A stretch of 33,646 nucleotides of DNA from a virus. Its lineage: Duplodnaviria; Caudoviricetes. Below, in pieces: positions 1,090 to 12,601 of the stretch. The position numbers were made by a program, and so were the translations under genes. Within the stretch, counting starts at the first letter, position 1, and the number at the start of each line of letters is the position of its first letter. The notes beneath the pieces were generated by a model. The model was not told the origin of the DNA. It did not search any database and saw only the letters and a program-made list of their open reading frames with translations. The DNA is taken from the IMG/VR virus record IMGVR_UViG_3300043466_000290, positions 1 to 33,646 of that record; one strand, written 5' to 3'.

Positions 1090-1875
1090 ATGAGCGCAAA
1101 TATACTTTTCATATCTGAAAATCTAATTAAAAGCAGAACAGGAATAAGTGATGCTATTGATGGCAAACAATTAAAGCCACATATTAAAGTAGCGCAAGAC
1201 CTTTATTTGCAACCTGCTTTGGGAAGTACTTTATACCTACGTTTACAATCAGGAATAGAGGCTGCAAACCTTTCTAATTTAGAAAAATCTTTATTAGATA
1301 ATTTTATTACCGATTGTTTGGTATGGTACACAATGAGTTTATTACCCTTTGGATTAGGTTATCAATTTTTCAGTAAGGGGATATTACAAAAGACAAGTGA
1401 AGAAAGCAATGCTCCAAGTAGAGCAGATTTAGAGTTGATAGGAAATGAATATAAAAAGACTGCTGAATTTTACAAGCAAAGATTAATTAATTATTTAAGA
1501 GAGAATTATTTATTGTTTTCTGAATACTTTAATCCTGGCAGCGGATTAGATGTTATTTTTCCCGAATTAAAAGCATATACAAGTCCTATTTATTTAGGTA
1601 ATGTAAATGATGGAGTAAGGGTATTTTCTAACAATGCAACAAGCGGTGGAGCAACAACTATTTATCATACACCTGCTGCAGGAGACAGTAGTTTCTCAGT
1701 TGGTGGATTAGTTAATAAAGTAGTGTTAATTGCAATGAGGTCAGGATTGGTAAAAGGTATAACAAACTTACCTACTGCAAATCCTATGTACTTACAAATT
1801 GTTGGTAATGTAATTACTTTACCTACTGGGGATGTAACACAAGCAGGAGAATTATTTTCATTCACAATAAGATAA
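1090..1875 (+). CDS. Putative head-tail adaptor / head completion protein with a beta-rich C-terminal extension
   Basis: Directly follows the portal. The helical LFIS...IKxAQDxYLQPxLG...YxQRLxxYL pattern is typical of Bacteroidetes phage neck proteins. Confidence 0.6.
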   Translation: MSANILFISENLIKSRTGISDAIDGKQLKPHIKVAQDLYLQPALGSTLYLRLQSGIEAANLSNLEKSLLDNFITDCLVWYTMSLLPFGLGYQFFSKGILQKTSEESNAPSRADLELIGNEYKKTAEFYKQRLINYLRENYLLFSEYFNPGSGLDVIFPELKAYTSPIYLGNVNDGVRVFSNNATSGGATTIYHTPAAGDSSFSVGGLVNKVVLIAMRSGLVKGITNLPTANPMYLQIVGNVITLPTGDVTQAGELFSFTIR

Positions 1876-2026: not shown

Positions 2027-2351
2027 ACAACCAGTTTATCCGATTGCTTGTTTTTCAATTAATTCAGGTAGTTTAAATTTAGGTAGGGAACAGATTTACA
2101 ATGTTCAATTTTTCTTTTTAGATAAGAGTGGTCAAGAGGCTGAATACGAAGAGGATGTAATAAGCGACCAAGTGCAAATAGCTTCCGATATTCTTAGCTT
2201 AATGCGTACAGGTAGAAATAATTATTCAATAGATGATAACGTAACTTTTAATGCGATATCGGATAAGTACGAAGACTATTTGGCAGGGGTGGAGTTAACA
2301 ATTAATATTTCAACACAAAATCAATTTACTGGATGCGACGTGCCATTATAA
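1920..2351 (+). CDS. Putative tail terminator / tail completion protein
   Basis: 143 aa with an alpha/beta pattern (YP...F...D...D.L) and a position in the neck module. Confidence 0.55.
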   Translation: MTYNQLITTITSLLQNHEMIKTAKYATPKEWLLRDEQPVYPIACFSINSGSLNLGREQIYNVQFFFLDKSGQEAEYEEDVISDQVQIASDILSLMRTGRNNYSIDDNVTFNAISDKYEDYLAGVELTINISTQNQFTGCDVPL

Positions 2352-5300
2352 CATTATTAGTTTTATTATCTTTTGGATTGAAAGCGCAGGTTTATCAAGC
2401 TATGCCACAGGCAGGTTACGGTCCTGTTAAGCGTATGTTATTTGATAGTGTGTTAACTATTCCTTTGAATATCAATCAGTTAAGAAATATTACAGGCGGT
2501 AGAGATGCCGGACAAATTAGGTATAATGTAACTGATAGTGGCTTGTATGTTTTTAGTGGCTTTCAATGGATTAAAGCTAACTTAGATAGTACTAATATTT
2601 CAAATAGAATTAACGGCAAATTAAATATAAGTGATACGGCTGCAATGCTTTTGCCTTATATGAAATTTATTGATACTGTTTCTTTATCCAATAGAATTAA
2701 TTTAAGGGTTAAATATTCCGATACTGCACAGATGCTTTCGGTTTATTTACGCAAATTAGATACGGCTAGTTTATCAGATAGGATTAATAAAAAACAAGAC
2801 TCAATAACATTAACTACTAATTTTAAAAGCGGTGCTGCAACTTTAATAGGTGCAACTTTAAATATCCCTAAATATTCAGATACATTACAAGATAATTATG
2901 TGCCATATGTAGGAGCAATTAAGGATGTTGATTTAGGTGCTTATCAATTAAATGCAAACGGTATAAAAGCGGATTATTTATTACAAGTTAAAAATACTCC
3001 CTTTTCCATCACACCCACGAGTGATTATACAAGCATCACTCCAGATAAAACTGGTTTCGTCTTCTATACAAGTTGGCTTCAAGGTCAAAGTACCTATACT
3101 CAATCGAATAGATTTAATTATGCAAATCAGGCTCAGCAAAATAATACAAGGGAATATAATTTACCAGTAAGAAACGGAACTTTAGCATTAGTAGAAGATA
3201 CGGTTAACTTATCAAATAGAATTAATTTAAAGGCAGATAAAGCAACTGTTTTAACAATTAACGGAGTGGGTTATGATTTAAGTGCAAACAGAACTTGGAC
3301 TATCCCTACTTTTGATTCTACTTCTATATCAAATAGAATAAATTTAAAACTAAATATAAGCGATACTGCAGCGATGCTAAGTCCTTATTTAAAGAGTGCA
3401 GTTACAAGTGTAGGCTTATCTATGCCGGCAGCATTTAACGTTACTAATAGCCCTGTAACAAGCACAGGAACATTAACAGTAACAGGAGCAGGAACGGCAG
3501 CACAATATATTAGAGGCGATGGTCAATTAGCTACTTTGCCATCAGGTGTAAGCGGTGGTAGTTCGGTAGCTTACTATCTAAATGGTAGTGTTAATCAAGG
3601 TACAATAGGTGGAAGCGTTTATTATGAGATGAACAGAACTCCAGTTATTGGTGCAGGTACTGATTTTTCACTAGCAGGGAATGGATTAATTTCTCAATTT
3701 ATTACTGATGTTGCAGACCCAAATAGACTTGAAATTCCTGCCGGTAATTGGAACTTTGAAATTTATATGAGTGCATCTTCTTCAGGTGGTAATCCTGAAT
3801 TCTATGTTGAACTACTTAAATATGATGGAACAAATTTTACAAGTATTGCATCATCATCTGCAAATCCCGAAGCAATTACTAACGGAACTACAATAGATTT
3901 ATATGTAACTGCTTTGGCAATTCCTCAAACAACTTTACTAGCTACTGATAGACTTGTAATAAGAGTTTACATTGTTAATAGTACAGGCGGTAGGACAATT
4001 ACAATGCACACAGAAAATTCACATCTTTGTGAAATTATTACAAACTTTGCCGGTGGAGTTAGTGCGTTAAATGGATTAACTGCAAATACTCAATACTTAG
4101 CAGTAGGAACAAGTGGCAATGACTTTGCAATTAATAGCTTAACAGATACACATACATTTAATTTACCTACTGCTTCTTCAACTAAAAGAGGTGCTTTATC
4201 AAGTGCTGATTGGAGTACATTTAATGGTAAAATGAATTATAGTGATACTGCTTCTTTGTCTAATAGAATAAATTTAAAATTAAATTCTAGTGATACAGTT
4301 TCTTTATCTAATCGTATAAATACAAAATTAAATTCTACTGATACTGCAAGTTTATCTAATCGTATCAATACAAAAGCGGATGCACTAAGCGGAACTACAA
4401 ACACAGTTGCTAAATTTACTTCAGGAACTACGATCGGTAACAGTAATATAAAAGATGATGGAAATGTAGTTACTGTTAATGCAACTGCAGGTTCATTTGG
4501 TGCTTTACAAGTAGGTAACTACAATGGTAATATTTTAATGAATACTACTAATAGTTCAGCAGGTTTAATATTTCAAAATACTTCATCTTCAAATAAGTTA
4601 TGGGATATTAGCAGTTTAAATAATGATTTAAATATTAACGAATCAAACGTAGCTTTAGCACCACCTAGAATGATTTTTAAAGCAGGTGGAGATGTAATAG
4701 TATCAAGTTTAATTGGTAGTGGCACTCGGATGGTAACAGCAGATGCTAATGGTGTATTATCTAGTCAGACAATTACTGGAGTTGATACAACTTCTTTAAG
4801 TAACCGAATTAATTTAAAATTAAACATAAGTGATACTGCTTCTATGCTTAGCGGGTATCAAAGCGCAATTAATTCTAAACAAGCAGCAATAACATTAACA
4901 ACTACAGGTACAAGTGGAGCAGCAACCTTTAGTTCTAATACTTTAAACATACCACAGTATCAAGCTGCAGGAACTTATGTCACAAGTGTTACAGGAACTT
5001 CTCCAATAGTATCAAGCGGAGGAACTACACCTGCTATTTCTATTCCTGCTGCAACCAGTTCAGTAAATGGGTATTTAAGTTCTACTGATTGGAGTACGTT
5101 TAATGGTAAAGAATCTGTATTAACATTTTATTCTCCTTTAGTAAGGACTACAAATACTATTTCTATTCCTGTGGCAACCACATCTGTAAATGGTTATTTG
5201 TCATCTACCGATTGGACTACATTTAATAATAAAGTTTCTACTGCTACATTGAGTGGATATCTACCATTAACTGCAGGAACTAGTTTTCCATTAACAGGTA

Positions 5301-6166
5301 CTTTAACAATTAATAAAAGTGGTGAGGCATTAAGGATTGCAGGAGTTACAAGCGGTAATGCTACATTTCAAACTTGGTATGATTTTGTAGGTAACAGAAG
5401 AGGTTATTTTGGATATAGTACAGGGGGAAGTAATTTATTAGAATTAACTAATGAAACTGGTGGATTAATAAGTTTAAATGGTGGTAATGTAGGGATAAAC
5501 ACTACAACAGATGCAGGATATAAACTAGATGTTAATGGTACAGGAAGGTTTGGAGGGGGTACATTATCAAATCCAGCACTTATAGTTTCTGGAAATACAA
5601 GTGCAACTATTAGTGGTAATGCTAAACGATTAGCACAATTTAGATATAATGCTGGAGATGGAACAGGAATAGATTTAGGGTATGATGCAACTGCTGAAAA
5701 TGGAATAATTGCTGGTGGAACAAATACAAATGGTGCTGGTATAGATTTTTTAACTTATAATGGTAGTGCTTGGGGTAGTAGATTTTTAATAGCAAAATCA
5801 GGAGCAGCTACATTCTCTAGTAGTGTAGCAATGGGAGGTGGGGTAAGACAAGCAATGGCTGCTTATGGTGCGCAAGATGGAGGAACTATAAATTTATCTA
5901 CAATATTACCTACTGTAAATTTTAATGGCAATTTTGTTAGTTTATCATTACAAATTTTATCAACCGATGGAGGAAGTGTAAATTCATCTATTTATAACTG
6001 TTCTAGAAATTCAGGAACAACTTGGACTTCTACACTTGTTAGTACAAATGGAACTGCAAATATATTAACATTAACATTTGGAGGAACTTCAGCATCTCCA
6101 ACATTAGTAATAACAGGGTCAAGTATGTCATTAATGACAGTTTTATATTCCGCTTTGGTAAGATAA
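2333..6166 (+). CDS. Tail fibre-like protein (1277 aa) with an N-terminal Sec signal peptide
   Basis: G/S/T-rich modular fibre motifs (GxLSSxDWxTFNxK x3, GNVGINTTT...KLDVNGTGRF) and nine D(S/T)xx(L/I)S(N/D)RIN repeats. The N-terminus is MRRAIITLLVLLSFGLKA-Q. Confidence 0.8.
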   Translation: MRRAIITLLVLLSFGLKAQVYQAMPQAGYGPVKRMLFDSVLTIPLNINQLRNITGGRDAGQIRYNVTDSGLYVFSGFQWIKANLDSTNISNRINGKLNISDTAAMLLPYMKFIDTVSLSNRINLRVKYSDTAQMLSVYLRKLDTASLSDRINKKQDSITLTTNFKSGAATLIGATLNIPKYSDTLQDNYVPYVGAIKDVDLGAYQLNANGIKADYLLQVKNTPFSITPTSDYTSITPDKTGFVFYTSWLQGQSTYTQSNRFNYANQAQQNNTREYNLPVRNGTLALVEDTVNLSNRINLKADKATVLTINGVGYDLSANRTWTIPTFDSTSISNRINLKLNISDTAAMLSPYLKSAVTSVGLSMPAAFNVTNSPVTSTGTLTVTGAGTAAQYIRGDGQLATLPSGVSGGSSVAYYLNGSVNQGTIGGSVYYEMNRTPVIGAGTDFSLAGNGLISQFITDVADPNRLEIPAGNWNFEIYMSASSSGGNPEFYVELLKYDGTNFTSIASSSANPEAITNGTTIDLYVTALAIPQTTLLATDRLVIRVYIVNSTGGRTITMHTENSHLCEIITNFAGGVSALNGLTANTQYLAVGTSGNDFAINSLTDTHTFNLPTASSTKRGALSSADWSTFNGKMNYSDTASLSNRINLKLNSSDTVSLSNRINTKLNSTDTASLSNRINTKADALSGTTNTVAKFTSGTTIGNSNIKDDGNVVTVNATAGSFGALQVGNYNGNILMNTTNSSAGLIFQNTSSSNKLWDISSLNNDLNINESNVALAPPRMIFKAGGDVIVSSLIGSGTRMVTADANGVLSSQTITGVDTTSLSNRINLKLNISDTASMLSGYQSAINSKQAAITLTTTGTSGAATFSSNTLNIPQYQAAGTYVTSVTGTSPIVSSGGTTPAISIPAATSSVNGYLSSTDWSTFNGKESVLTFYSPLVRTTNTISIPVATTSVNGYLSSTDWTTFNNKVSTATLSGYLPLTAGTSFPLTGTLTINKSGEALRIAGVTSGNATFQTWYDFVGNRRGYFGYSTGGSNLLELTNETGGLISLNGGNVGINTTTDAGYKLDVNGTGRFGGGTLSNPALIVSGNTSATISGNAKRLAQFRYNAGDGTGIDLGYDATAENGIIAGGTNTNGAGIDFLTYNGSAWGSRFLIAKSGAATFSSSVAMGGGVRQAMAAYGAQDGGTINLSTILPTVNFNGNFVSLSLQILSTDGGSVNSSIYNCSRNSGTTWTSTLVSTNGTANILTLTFGGTSASPTLVITGSSMSLMTVLYSALVR
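4244..4378 (+). repeat. Three tandem 48-bp units encoding DTxSLSNRINxKLNS repeats (third unit partial)
   Basis: Units start at 4244, 4292 and 4340. Confidence 0.85.
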
Positions 6167-6178
6167 AATAATAAATAA

Positions 6179-6253
6179 ATAATTTATTACAAGGAACTAT
6201 CAGCTAAAAACGAAGCATTAATTAAAAGAATAGAAACATTAGAAAACAAATGA
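6179..6253 (+). pseudogene. Orphan C-terminal coiled-coil fragment of a former fibre (resembles the end of a peptidase S74 chaperone)
   Basis: Reads IIYYKELSAKNEALIKRIETLENK* in the same frame as the fibre, separated from it by TAA stops at 6164 and 6176. It has no start codon. Confidence 0.6.
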
Positions 6254-6483
6254 TGACACCAAAACAAAAGGCAGATGAGTTAGTTAATAAATATCTTACA
6301 AGTAGAGATGCTAATCAATTAAATGATGTAAGAGATATACATTCTGCAATAAGATGTGCATTAATAGCAGTAAATGAAATACTAGGAGGATTAGGATATA
6401 ATAAATTAAGTGATAGTCCATATACTACATTAGAAGCAAGACAATATTATGTGCAAGTAAAACAAGAAATAGAAAACTTATAA
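6250..6483 (+). CDS. Hypothetical protein, paralogue of 14905..15108
   Basis: Shares MTxKxKAxEL...CALIAVxE...KxEIExL. Confidence 0.75.
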   Translation: MMTPKQKADELVNKYLTSRDANQLNDVRDIHSAIRCALIAVNEILGGLGYNKLSDSPYTTLEARQYYVQVKQEIENL

Positions 6484-6485
6484 AT

Positions 6486-6707
6486 ATGAAAAAAACAATC
6501 ACAACCCTAGCATTGGCATTAAGTATGTCAGCAGCATTTAGTCAAGTATCCGATACATTAATTATTAGAATGGACACAACTCGATTTAAGGCTATTATAT
6601 CAATCATTCAAAAGCAATTAGATTCAAAAGCAGCAAGTGATTATATTTTAGAAGCACTTAGCCATTACGAATTAATAGCAACAAAGCCTAAAGAAATAAA
6701 AAAGTAA
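6486..6707 (+). CDS. Small exported protein, putative fibre accessory/chaperone
   Basis: Signal peptide MKKTITTLALALSMSAAFS-Q with a short helical mature part. Confidence 0.7.
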   Translation: MKKTITTLALALSMSAAFSQVSDTLIIRMDTTRFKAIISIIQKQLDSKAASDYILEALSHYELIATKPKEIKK

Positions 6708-6709
6708 AT

Positions 6710-7081
6710 ATGAAAAAAATAATCCTATCAGTTTTAGTGTTGGCATCATTGTCAACGAAAGCGCAAATGTTTAGAAATAATAGTGATACTGCAATAATTG
6801 GAAAAGATACTATCTATTATCAAAAGGGTGGCATTTTAATTAAGCCAGTTATTGTTAACTACTCAGGCGATTTAGCTTGGTCATTAAGTTGGACTGCTAA
6901 CAACCTTTCAAGCAACGGAGAGGGGTGTAATACCTATGTAACATTGAGAGGTAAAAACAACAACCAGTTAGCTGATTTTAATTGCTATATACCGGCTTCA
7001 GTAGTTGCAGTTTGGGGAATTAGTAATGCTCCTATAGATTCTACAATCTTATCTCAATATCCAAGATTTGTAAAACAATAG
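6710..7081 (+). CDS. Exported protein, putative fibre-associated protein
   Basis: Signal peptide MKKIILSVLVLASLSTKA-Q. The beta-rich mature part (IKPV...CNTY...QLA.FN...WG) resembles small proteins commonly found after fibres. Confidence 0.7.
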   Translation: MKKIILSVLVLASLSTKAQMFRNNSDTAIIGKDTIYYQKGGILIKPVIVNYSGDLAWSLSWTANNLSSNGEGCNTYVTLRGKNNNQLADFNCYIPASVVAVWGISNAPIDSTILSQYPRFVKQ

Positions 7082-7083
7082 TA

Positions 7084-7242
7084 ATGAACTTTCAGGACTA
7101 CAAAATATATATTTTTAATGGCTTTGCGCTTTCGGTATCAATGACTAACATTGAAACTTACCTACGCATTACCTTATTATTGTTATCAATAGCTTACACA
7201 CTTTTTAAACTTTTAAAAGATGATAAAAATGAAAAACTTTAA
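7084..7242 (+). CDS. Small membrane protein, putative holin/antiholin (52 aa)
   Basis: Not in the ORF track. MNFQDYKIYIFNGFALSVSMTNIETYLRITLLLLSIAYTLFKLLKDDKNEKL has two hydrophobic segments and a charged tail. Confidence 0.65.
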   Translation: MNFQDYKIYIFNGFALSVSMTNIETYLRITLLLLSIAYTLFKLLKDDKNEKL

Positions 7243-7411
7243 GACAAGTATTGCCGGATTATTGGCAGGTGTACCTTTCATAGTAGATGCTTTGGTAGAG
7301 GCATATAATCAAGGTGCTTTCACAGGCAAAAGCGGTTTACAATTAGTAGCTGCTATCGGAGTGGTTTTATTAGGTCTATACTCAAAAGACCACGATGTTA
7401 AGGGTTTATAG
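7229..7411 (+). CDS. Putative holin (2 TM)
   Basis: MKNFKTSIAG... with two hydrophobic helices, in the lysis cassette. An alternative start is at 7220. Confidence 0.65.
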   Translation: MKNFKTSIAGLLAGVPFIVDALVEAYNQGAFTGKSGLQLVAAIGVVLLGLYSKDHDVKGL

Positions 7412-7898
7412 GATATTAGTAGCAGCTTTCTTATTAGGAGGCTGCTACACCCAAAATAAGGCGGTTAAACAAGTTAATAAGGCATTGGGCAGCTATCCTG
7501 AAATAGTTGCTAAAATCGCCTTAGATTCATTCCCTTGCAATGTTATCAAAGTAGATACAATCATCACTCACTTTGATACAACAATCGAGGTAATTTACCC
7601 TCACTTTGATACAAGCTTGTCCCGAATAGATACAATATATGGGACGAAAAAAGTGTACGTTAAATTACCGTACAAAACAATTTATATAACAAAGTCAATA
7701 GAATCAACTGCTAAATTAACTATCTTAAATGCTAGGTTTGATTCATTAACAAAAGTTACTACTTTTATTCAGAAGTCAAATCAGGATTTAACCAGTAAAG
7801 TAGGCAGGAAGAATAAAGTTATTTATTGGCTGATAGCATTATTAATAGGATTCTCAATACCCTATTTAATTAAACTTATAAAAATACTAGATATATGA
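7395..7898 (+). CDS. Putative unimolecular spanin
   Basis: N-terminal lipobox LLGG-C17, a beta-rich/coiled middle and a C-terminal TM helix. Lies between holin and endolysin. Confidence 0.7.
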   Translation: MLRVYRILVAAFLLGGCYTQNKAVKQVNKALGSYPEIVAKIALDSFPCNVIKVDTIITHFDTTIEVIYPHFDTSLSRIDTIYGTKKVYVKLPYKTIYITKSIESTAKLTILNARFDSLTKVTTFIQKSNQDLTSKVGRKNKVIYWLIALLIGFSIPYLIKLIKILDI

Positions 7899-8344
7899 CA
7901 CCATCAAATGAATTTTATAGATTATTAAAGTTATTTGAAGGTTGTAAATTAGATGCTTATAGATGTCCTGCAAATGTGGTTACTATTGGGTATGGCAGTG
8001 TAATGGATTTAAAAGGCAATTCAATAATAATGGGCAGTAAGATAAGCCTAGCAGAAGCGGAAGCCTTACTAAAAAATGAGGTAGATAAGAAAGCGAAATA
8101 CCTAAATAAAGAACTAGGTAAAACAATAGTTACACAGAATCAATTTGATGCTTTATTATTATTTCAATATAATTGCGGTAGTGCAGCATTAACTAGAAGC
8201 ACCTTATTTAAAAAAGTAAAAGCAAATCCTAACGATAAGACCATTGAAGCTGAATTTATGAGATGGGATAAAGTAGGCGGTAAACCATTAAAGGGTTTAA
8301 CAATACGAAGAGCAACCGAATCAAAACTATACTTCACTAAATAA
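7895..8344 (+). CDS. Endolysin, phage lysozyme (GH24)
   Basis: FEGCKLDAYRCPANVVTIGYG, TQNQFDAL...YNCG and GLTIRRATE motifs. Confidence 0.93.
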   Translation: MTPSNEFYRLLKLFEGCKLDAYRCPANVVTIGYGSVMDLKGNSIIMGSKISLAEAEALLKNEVDKKAKYLNKELGKTIVTQNQFDALLLFQYNCGSAALTRSTLFKKVKANPNDKTIEAEFMRWDKVGGKPLKGLTIRRATESKLYFTK

Positions 8345-12370: not shown

Positions 12371-12601
12371 ATGATTAACATTAAAAAAGATATTTTAGAG
12401 TATAGAATAAATAATTCAGCAAAGATTTTTTATATTTACCTTGAGCATACAAAAAGGTTTAACAAATCTAATGCCTATTATGCAGATGCTTTTGAAGTAT
12501 CAACTATGACGGTAAACAACTGGATAAATGAATTAAAAGATACAGGGCTAATAGAAATAATATTTGAGGATAACAAACGTAAAATCTTAATAAATGAATA
12601 A
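12371..12601 (+). CDS. Helix-turn-helix protein
   Basis: SNAYYADAFEVSTMTVNNWINELKDTGLI. Confidence 0.75.
   Translation: MINIKKDILEYRINNSAKIFYIYLEHTKRFNKSNAYYADAFEVSTMTVNNWINELKDTGLIEIIFEDNKRKILINE

Follow-up and report, generated by a model that had tools for sequence, protein, structure and literature searches.

The IMG/VR virus record IMGVR_UViG_3300043466_000290, a tailed-phage genome (Caudoviricetes) that was analysed over its whole length of 33,646 nt (the window), carries at 2333–7081 a tail-fibre module in which the fibre and two small accessory proteins begin with putative secretion leaders; the evidence assembled here points to a fibre that is exported through the Sec pathway, matures in the periplasm and may join the virion only at lysis. 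The module consists of the gene for the fibre itself, a protein of 1277 amino acids (aa; 2333–6166), an inserted gene for a 77-aa protein (6250–6483), and the genes for a 73-aa (6486–6707) and a 123-aa (6710–7081) exported accessory protein, all on the plus strand. The three leader-bearing open reading frames (ORFs) start exactly as quoted in the original prediction, which had been made from the letters of the window alone. Upstream, on the same strand, lies the gene for a 143-aa neck protein (1920–2351), likely the tail terminator (a label taken from position and size alone), which has no Pfam or significant PHROG match and served as synteny anchor.

Leaders were scored by a heuristic rule (a basic n-region, an 8-residue hydropathy of ≥2.2, Ala, Gly, Ser or Cys at −1 and Gln at +1), and the three proteins are the sole ones to pass it among the 50 window genes tested, the portal lying outside the valid test; the leaders with Gln at +1 that had been predicted are thus confirmed. 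The predicted signal peptidase I (SPase I) signal peptides comprise 18 residues in the fibre (2333–2386), 19 in the 73-aa and 18 in the 123-aa protein, and by the same heuristic all three have the features of SPase I substrates, including the lack of a lipobox. As described in PMC5837995, Gln following the SPase I site is cyclised in the periplasm of Bacteroidota (the Q-rule). Among the matches listed, homologues of the fibre and of the 73-aa protein each pass the rule in 109 of 120 cases, and those of the 123-aa protein in 37 of 39; those that fail mostly have downstream start calls, leaders just below the hydropathy cut-off or long n-regions. A Pfam search at E ≤ 0.01 assigned no family to the three proteins, a C-terminal type IX sorting domain included.

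In alignments, the mature fibre begins with a conserved domain (2387–2587) containing an invariant Gln1 and an invariant D-S-V motif, presumably the docking end; it has no match among the leaderless fibres tested, nor in bacterial genomes by pattern scan. This same N-terminus is preceded by 17 different leader sequences which all keep the properties of a leader, and this bears on the idea that the leader is vestigial or bypassed and that a cytoplasmic form starting at Met24 ordinarily supplies the virion. Met24 is nearly invariant, three relatives (P0061, P0095 and P0097) are called from it in the database, and the first ATG overlaps the upstream gene and, unlike the start codons of the two small genes, has no A at −3. 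However, L004, a contig equal in length to that of P0061, carries the complete leader in frame, Met24 is replaced by Tyr in L106, and the excess of glycosylation motifs described below tracks the leader; we regard a bypassed leader as very improbable, and Met24, whose use would have undone the original prediction, is not the conserved start. Sec export of the proteins, taken by itself, is highly probable from their sequences.

The leader-bearing protein has the marks of a tail fibre, namely fibre modules, a variable tip and a position in the structural operon. As predicted, its gene is the sole long fibre gene of the complete genome, with a Gly/Ser/Thr fraction of 0.34 versus 0.17–0.24 in the other long ORFs tested. 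Of the 47 leaderless proteins compared, which come from this and from other phages, 33 have segments in common with it; the module formed by residues 353–635 (3389–4237), which is free of glycosylation motifs, is 58–69% identical to leaderless fibres of other phages in the best matches. In relatives, the next long gene after the 143-aa anchor is either a leader fibre gene or, following a gene for 112–123 aa, one for a leaderless fibre or tail protein, and the leader fibre gene takes the place of leaderless fibre genes at this one structural-operon locus. Searches of the fibre and of the 690-aa tail protein against PDB sequences returned chance matches only, and all matches in Atlas searches were under 0.9.

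The fibre tip is hypervariable among relatives. That of the window (5753–6166) has no homologue among the relatives' loci compared and is without the S74 chaperone; DNA comparison revealed the orphan 3′ end of such a chaperone past the fibre stop codon and outside any ORF (6179–6253), in which 6194–6251 is 90–100% identical to the fibre ends of seven out of seven relatives tested, indicating that the tip was swapped for a chaperone-less one. The last ~58 bases of this orphan end, a conserved block in relatives, may serve as recombination anchor for tip exchange. An S74-type coiled coil ends 20 of the 25 close-clade fibres, and a Pfam S74 match is found in relatives such as P0040. The 77-aa gene behind the fibre (phrog_21441, E 2e-9), like the chaperone loss not mentioned in the original prediction, has no leader, is unrelated to the module and separates the fibre gene from the two small ones. 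None of the close relatives inspected has it, and in a contig of RNA run X24 position 6251 is joined directly to 6483. At 12465–12998 of L004 another gene, encoding 177 aa and which we take to be HNH endonuclease-like, is inserted right behind the fibre.

A second line of evidence is the distribution of glycosylation motifs. Bacteroidota are described as glycosylating exported proteins at D(S/T)(A/I/L/V/M/T), with a few further residues (PMC8698959, PMC10897501). Relative to expectations from shuffles, the fibre carries 16 such motifs instead of 5.75, most of them at the start of the DTxSLSNRIN-type repeats of this mosaic protein, the 123-aa protein has 3 (0.31 expected) and the 73-aa protein 2 (0.42 expected, p 0.07); a spanin-like lipoprotein of the lysis cassette (7395–7898, plus strand), which serves as internal positive control, has 4 versus 0.58, and the remaining 46 window genes together have 13 versus 19.8. 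The 120 anchor-gene loci yielded 89 with a complete long gene and 50 distinct ones; the observed-to-expected ratio is 2.81 in the 36 leader fibres among them (lowest value 2.04) versus 1.00 in the 14 leaderless proteins of the same locus. Control motifs with E, N or G substituted do not distinguish leader from leaderless proteins; leader fibres have a raised ratio for the reversed motif (1.82), as S-D-T strings would lead one to expect. In 38 complete, hand-picked leaderless fibres of other phages the ratio is 0.61. The sharpest contrast is provided by the family of the 123-aa protein, short proteins new to the comparison, where 61 proteins out of 66 matches contain 178 motifs versus 28 expected, while 59 distinct leaderless homologues contain 2 versus 22; the 73-aa family has 213 versus 40.6. 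The conserved leaders and the motif excess together suggest that the proteins are likely Sec-exported, cut by SPase I and likely glycosylated in the periplasm.

The core of the DTxSLSNRIN repeat occurs in none of the 47 leaderless proteins. Of 510 candidate viral-contig stretches, 411 proved to contain it, and it is found in leader fibres of several unrelated gene contexts; in a survey of repeat fibres 24 passed the leader rule, 10 were cut, 10 failed it with a long basic n-region and 9 belonged to the clade of the window. One lineage (L248, L250, L257, L258, L260–L262, L265, L276, L277 and P0114) has repeat fibres whose hydrophobic core and Gln come after a basic extension of ~40 residues, and additional leader-bearing genes lie downstream; in some relatives a second leader-bearing gene follows the fibre, such as the one for 289 aa at 5909–6778 of L387, which has one glycosylation motif only. 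Exported proteins encoded by Chitinophagaceae (Sediminibacterium) and other Bacteroidota contain the repeat as well; in these bacterial genomes 55 of 70 loci pass the leader rule and 931 motifs stand against 325 expected; with modules of phage origin and a repeat in common with exported host proteins, the fibre is a mosaic of both.

This sharing could also mean that the three are exported non-virion proteins borrowed from host surface fibres, that is, periplasmic or released decoys, adhesins or receptor blockers, an alternative raised already in the original prediction; the true receptor binder could then be the 690-aa protein, which has a long C-terminal addition in the relative G004. What speaks against it is that the gene is syntenic with leaderless fibre genes, has modules in common with them and ends in a hypervariable tip, and that no secretion-tail family was found with Pfam. 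Furthermore, all genes have the same orientation, and a scan of the 36 larger window proteins gave no integrase match; there is thus little to suggest lysogeny, during which a surface protein would be of benefit. The alternative is therefore quite unlikely, and less likely than a virion fibre.

In a deep profile comparison (hhalign probability 71%, E 4e-5) the 123-aa family proved homologous to a leaderless protein of ~83–120 aa encoded behind the fibre in many Bacteroidota phages; a shallower comparison with the 83-aa family had been weak, with a probability of 10%. Position and this leaderless homologue suggest that the small proteins are folding or assembly partners. For the 73-aa protein family searches found no leaderless homologue. 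The 123-aa protein was modelled with a predicted local distance difference test (pLDDT) score of 92, and the model has no clear match among solved folds (best Z 3.5); two of its cysteines, invariant in the exported close clade and missing from the consensus of the leaderless homologues, could possibly form a periplasmic disulfide. The expectation of a joint gain or loss of leaders throughout the module did not hold: many relatives pair a leader fibre with a leaderless 123-aa homologue, and the leader-bearing small proteins form a nested clade (support 100/100). Joint gain was rejected, as many relatives export the fibre alone.

Comparison of five records with the window revealed one consistent difference between leader and leaderless loci, a C-terminal extension on the DUF6712 protein (1090–1875, plus strand; PF20459, E 1e-16), which is encoded directly after the portal and is likely the head-tail adaptor. 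It has 261 aa versus 190–196 aa in close relatives with leaderless genes; the helical N-terminal part, modelled with low confidence, weakly matches HK97 gp6 (Z 4.0). The extension (1630–1872) is confidently modelled as a small beta-sandwich, with a pLDDT of 75–91 over the 10-residue blocks from 191 to 260, and its 21 best matches in a set of 48,161 chains come without exception from phage tail or neck or injection-system proteins (Z 5.5–7.3; root-mean-square deviation 2.0–3.6 over 59–76 residues), the nearest solved folds including SU10 tail chain 7z47_A and the N-terminal domains of CBA120 TSP4. In a census of 92 distinct adaptor cores (14 truncated loci were skipped), 67 had the extension and a leader fibre, 4 had the extension with another gene scored, 20 were short without a leader gene and 1 was short with a leader fibre. 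Three of the four have a gene for 148–210 aa before the leader fibre, and in the fourth the leader has Thr at −1 and is missed by the heuristic; hence all 71 extended adaptors go with a leader fibre. The sole short adaptor with a leader fibre, in G160, is accompanied by an extended terminator of 244 aa, and the dock profile also matches genes near leader fibres in other lineages (L128, L256 and L238/L263). Fold likeness and co-occurrence make the extension a candidate fibre dock, and binding to it would place the fibre at the neck.

Three variants of this arrangement are worth recording. A prophage-like region, L455 (14808–19027), which represents G160, has the gene order of the window; its terminator is extended, its leader fibre has 1086 aa, and it also encodes a protein of 69 aa that bears a hydrophobic leader. 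In L384 (1398–2523), L395–L397 and L400 a short terminator tail is followed by a leaderless gene for 148–210 aa before the exported fibre, possibly a second, cytoplasmic appendage. In L209 (4069–8611; G004), a leaderless relative, the 690-aa tail protein has a C-terminal addition of ~500 aa and there is an extra gene for 340 aa, which suggests receptor binding at the tail tip.

By the general view, the whole particle of a tailed phage is assembled in the cytoplasm. In the assembly route we propose, heads and tails would be assembled fibreless in that compartment, while the fibre and the two small proteins would be exported by Sec and cut by signal peptidase I; cleavage, pyroglutamate formation and glycosylation would follow from known host pathways. 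Trimeric fibres would build up in the periplasm, supported by the small proteins as folding or assembly partners that followed the fibre there in this clade. Lysis by holin, endolysin and spanin would then bring periplasmic fibres and fibreless particles together, and the fibre would dock onto the jelly-roll at the end of the likely adaptor. Tailspikes of P22 and fibres of T4 attach spontaneously to particles. We put the probability of this whole course of events, from Sec export, cleavage, likely glycosylation and trimerisation in the periplasm to docking at the neck, at about 0.58. Regarding the original prediction, which had proposed periplasmic maturation and attachment at or after lysis, export through Sec and SPase I is well supported; the attachment we infer, with the candidate dock and a parallel in Cellulophaga phage phi18:3 in its favour.

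Several observations weigh against this route. The presence or absence of the extension corresponds to a single split of the tree (support 100/100; in a second tree 98/99 for the short-adaptor clade and 87/65 for the extension clade), so that the co-occurrence amounts to about one independent contrast, and a dock-like domain lies directly upstream of a leaderless fibre in L189 (E 0.0016) and is therefore not specific to exported fibres. The fold matches of the extension have Z-scores below the trust level of 8 and Foldseek E-values of 0.04 or worse, and the extension of the G160 terminator fits the dock profile weakly (6.7 bits, with 7 of 1000 shuffles as high; hhalign probability 3%). Most fibre motifs lie in repeats at helix starts, where capping by Asp, Ser or Thr could explain part of the excess, and the sequences counted are related, the counts thus being non-independent. 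The main text of PMC8698959 does not mention Chitinophagaceae, and O-glycosylation in this family is not shown in the passages cited for the motif. The window fibre has no Pfam match to a C-terminal S74 chaperone and retains only the orphan end. Finally, gp085–gp087 of phi18:3 carry 1 motif each versus about 3 expected, and their annotation from tandem mass spectrometry (MS/MS) could reflect co-purification.

The first two of these observations would fit a fibre that is exported and joins the virion at lysis elsewhere, at the tail tip, the 382-aa or 690-aa protein or the capsid, with the extension binding something else or simply marking the clade. Yet in the compared records an addition specific to leader phages is found on the adaptor but on neither the 382-aa nor the 690-aa protein, and the leader-fibre lineages L128 and L256 bear a similar domain on the gene adjacent upstream of the fibre; attachment at another site is unlikely. 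With docking at the adaptor as the preferred reading, a broader and more tentative proposal, to which we give somewhat less than even odds, is that a widespread group of Bacteroidota tailed phages builds its virions in two compartments, fibres that were exported, trimerised in the periplasm and coated there with the O-glycan of the host clicking at lysis onto a portable jelly-roll dock that is fused to the adaptor here, to the terminator in G160 and to other upstream genes in L128 and L256. If the fibre does mature in the periplasm and is attached at lysis, this would be a new assembly route in which infectivity is tied to lysis, and host-made glycans on virions could alter stability, host range and adsorption to cell debris; given the 411 viral-contig stretches with the repeat, the route would be common in freshwater. 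The candidate dock makes the idea directly testable with two small domains (about 80 and 70 residues), for which culture of the phage is not needed.

The remainder of the genome is that of a complete phage (33.6 kb) with direct terminal repeats, present in lake-water metagenomes; three DNA runs cover the stretch and are possibly its source, and one RNA run has contigs from a relative that span parts of the region but do not show expression. Its main genes, all on the plus strand, encode terminase, four tail-region proteins, a tape-measure protein (weak match), protease, capsid, a tail-tube-like protein, the portal (read across the ends), the DUF6712 and 143-aa proteins, the fibre module and the lysis cassette. 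The last comprises, also on the plus strand, an endolysin (7895–8344; PF00959, phrog_7) and two small putative holin-like genes (7084–7242 and 7220–7411) and the spanin-like lipoprotein mentioned above, so labelled from its sequence, which has a lipobox and a C-terminal membrane helix. Between 17384 and 20808 lies a cluster likely involved in DNA base hypermodification; it encodes a glucosyltransferase-like protein (phrog_842), a GT1 glycosyltransferase and a Tet/JBP-like oxygenase whose match to PF12851 falls slightly short of the cut-off. The host is presumably a member of the Chitinophagaceae, because the fibre repeat is found mostly in Sediminibacterium, Chitinophagaceae and other Bacteroidota genomes and the adaptor has matches in the family of Sediminibacterium: 12 of 401 genomes of the family of a Sediminibacterium genome have one at E ≤ 0.001, the gene order being much alike in the two inspected. 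No cultured relative emerged, neither the adaptor nor the fibre having a tblastn match in 50,697 phage records; the sole cultured-phage matches of the capsid protein are the Nonlabens phages P12024S/L (29%).

Literature searches outside subscription journals and supplements found no description of an exported tailed-phage fibre; several known systems nevertheless resemble parts of the arrangement. Phage phi18:3 (KC821620.1, Pachyviridae) encodes in gp085–gp087 adjacent long proteins with SPase I-type leaders and Gln at +1, annotated as structural from MS/MS; it belongs to a different phage family, and its record is silent on export. Bdellovibrio bacteriovorus exports phage-like S74 fibres with signal peptides (PMC10769870); by the description given there, these MAT fibres are likewise mosaic and trimeric, with a signal peptide followed by a conserved, beta-rich N-terminal domain of ~130 aa and with S74 or non-S74 ends, but they are bacterial surface adhesins from bacterial genes, whereas the window is a phage record. 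The adaptors of T7 and SU10 are described as having a jelly-roll fibre dock that is absent in phages without long fibres (PMC6702177, PMC9509320), and the N-termini of T7-like fibres are likewise jelly-rolls (PMC6702177, PMC9509320, PMC10575957). As in T7 gp11 and SU10, a helical part and a small jelly-roll may be combined in the likely adaptor of the window; their jelly-roll binds fibre N-termini and is part of a podophage adaptor serving a leaderless fibre, while that of the window is a candidate dock, added C-terminally in a phage with tape-measure and tail-tube-like genes. The exported repeat fibres of Chitinophagaceae (Sediminibacterium) and other Bacteroidota have the DTxSLSNRIN repeat, the leader with Gln at +1 and the motif excess in common with the window fibre and differ in their N-terminal domains and chromosomal context. 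The leaderless fibre modules of the same phage family (L021-type and L107-type), in turn, have the locus, shaft segments and a homologous small downstream protein in common with the window; they differ in having no leader, no motif excess, a short adaptor and an extra gene for 112–123 aa before the fibre.

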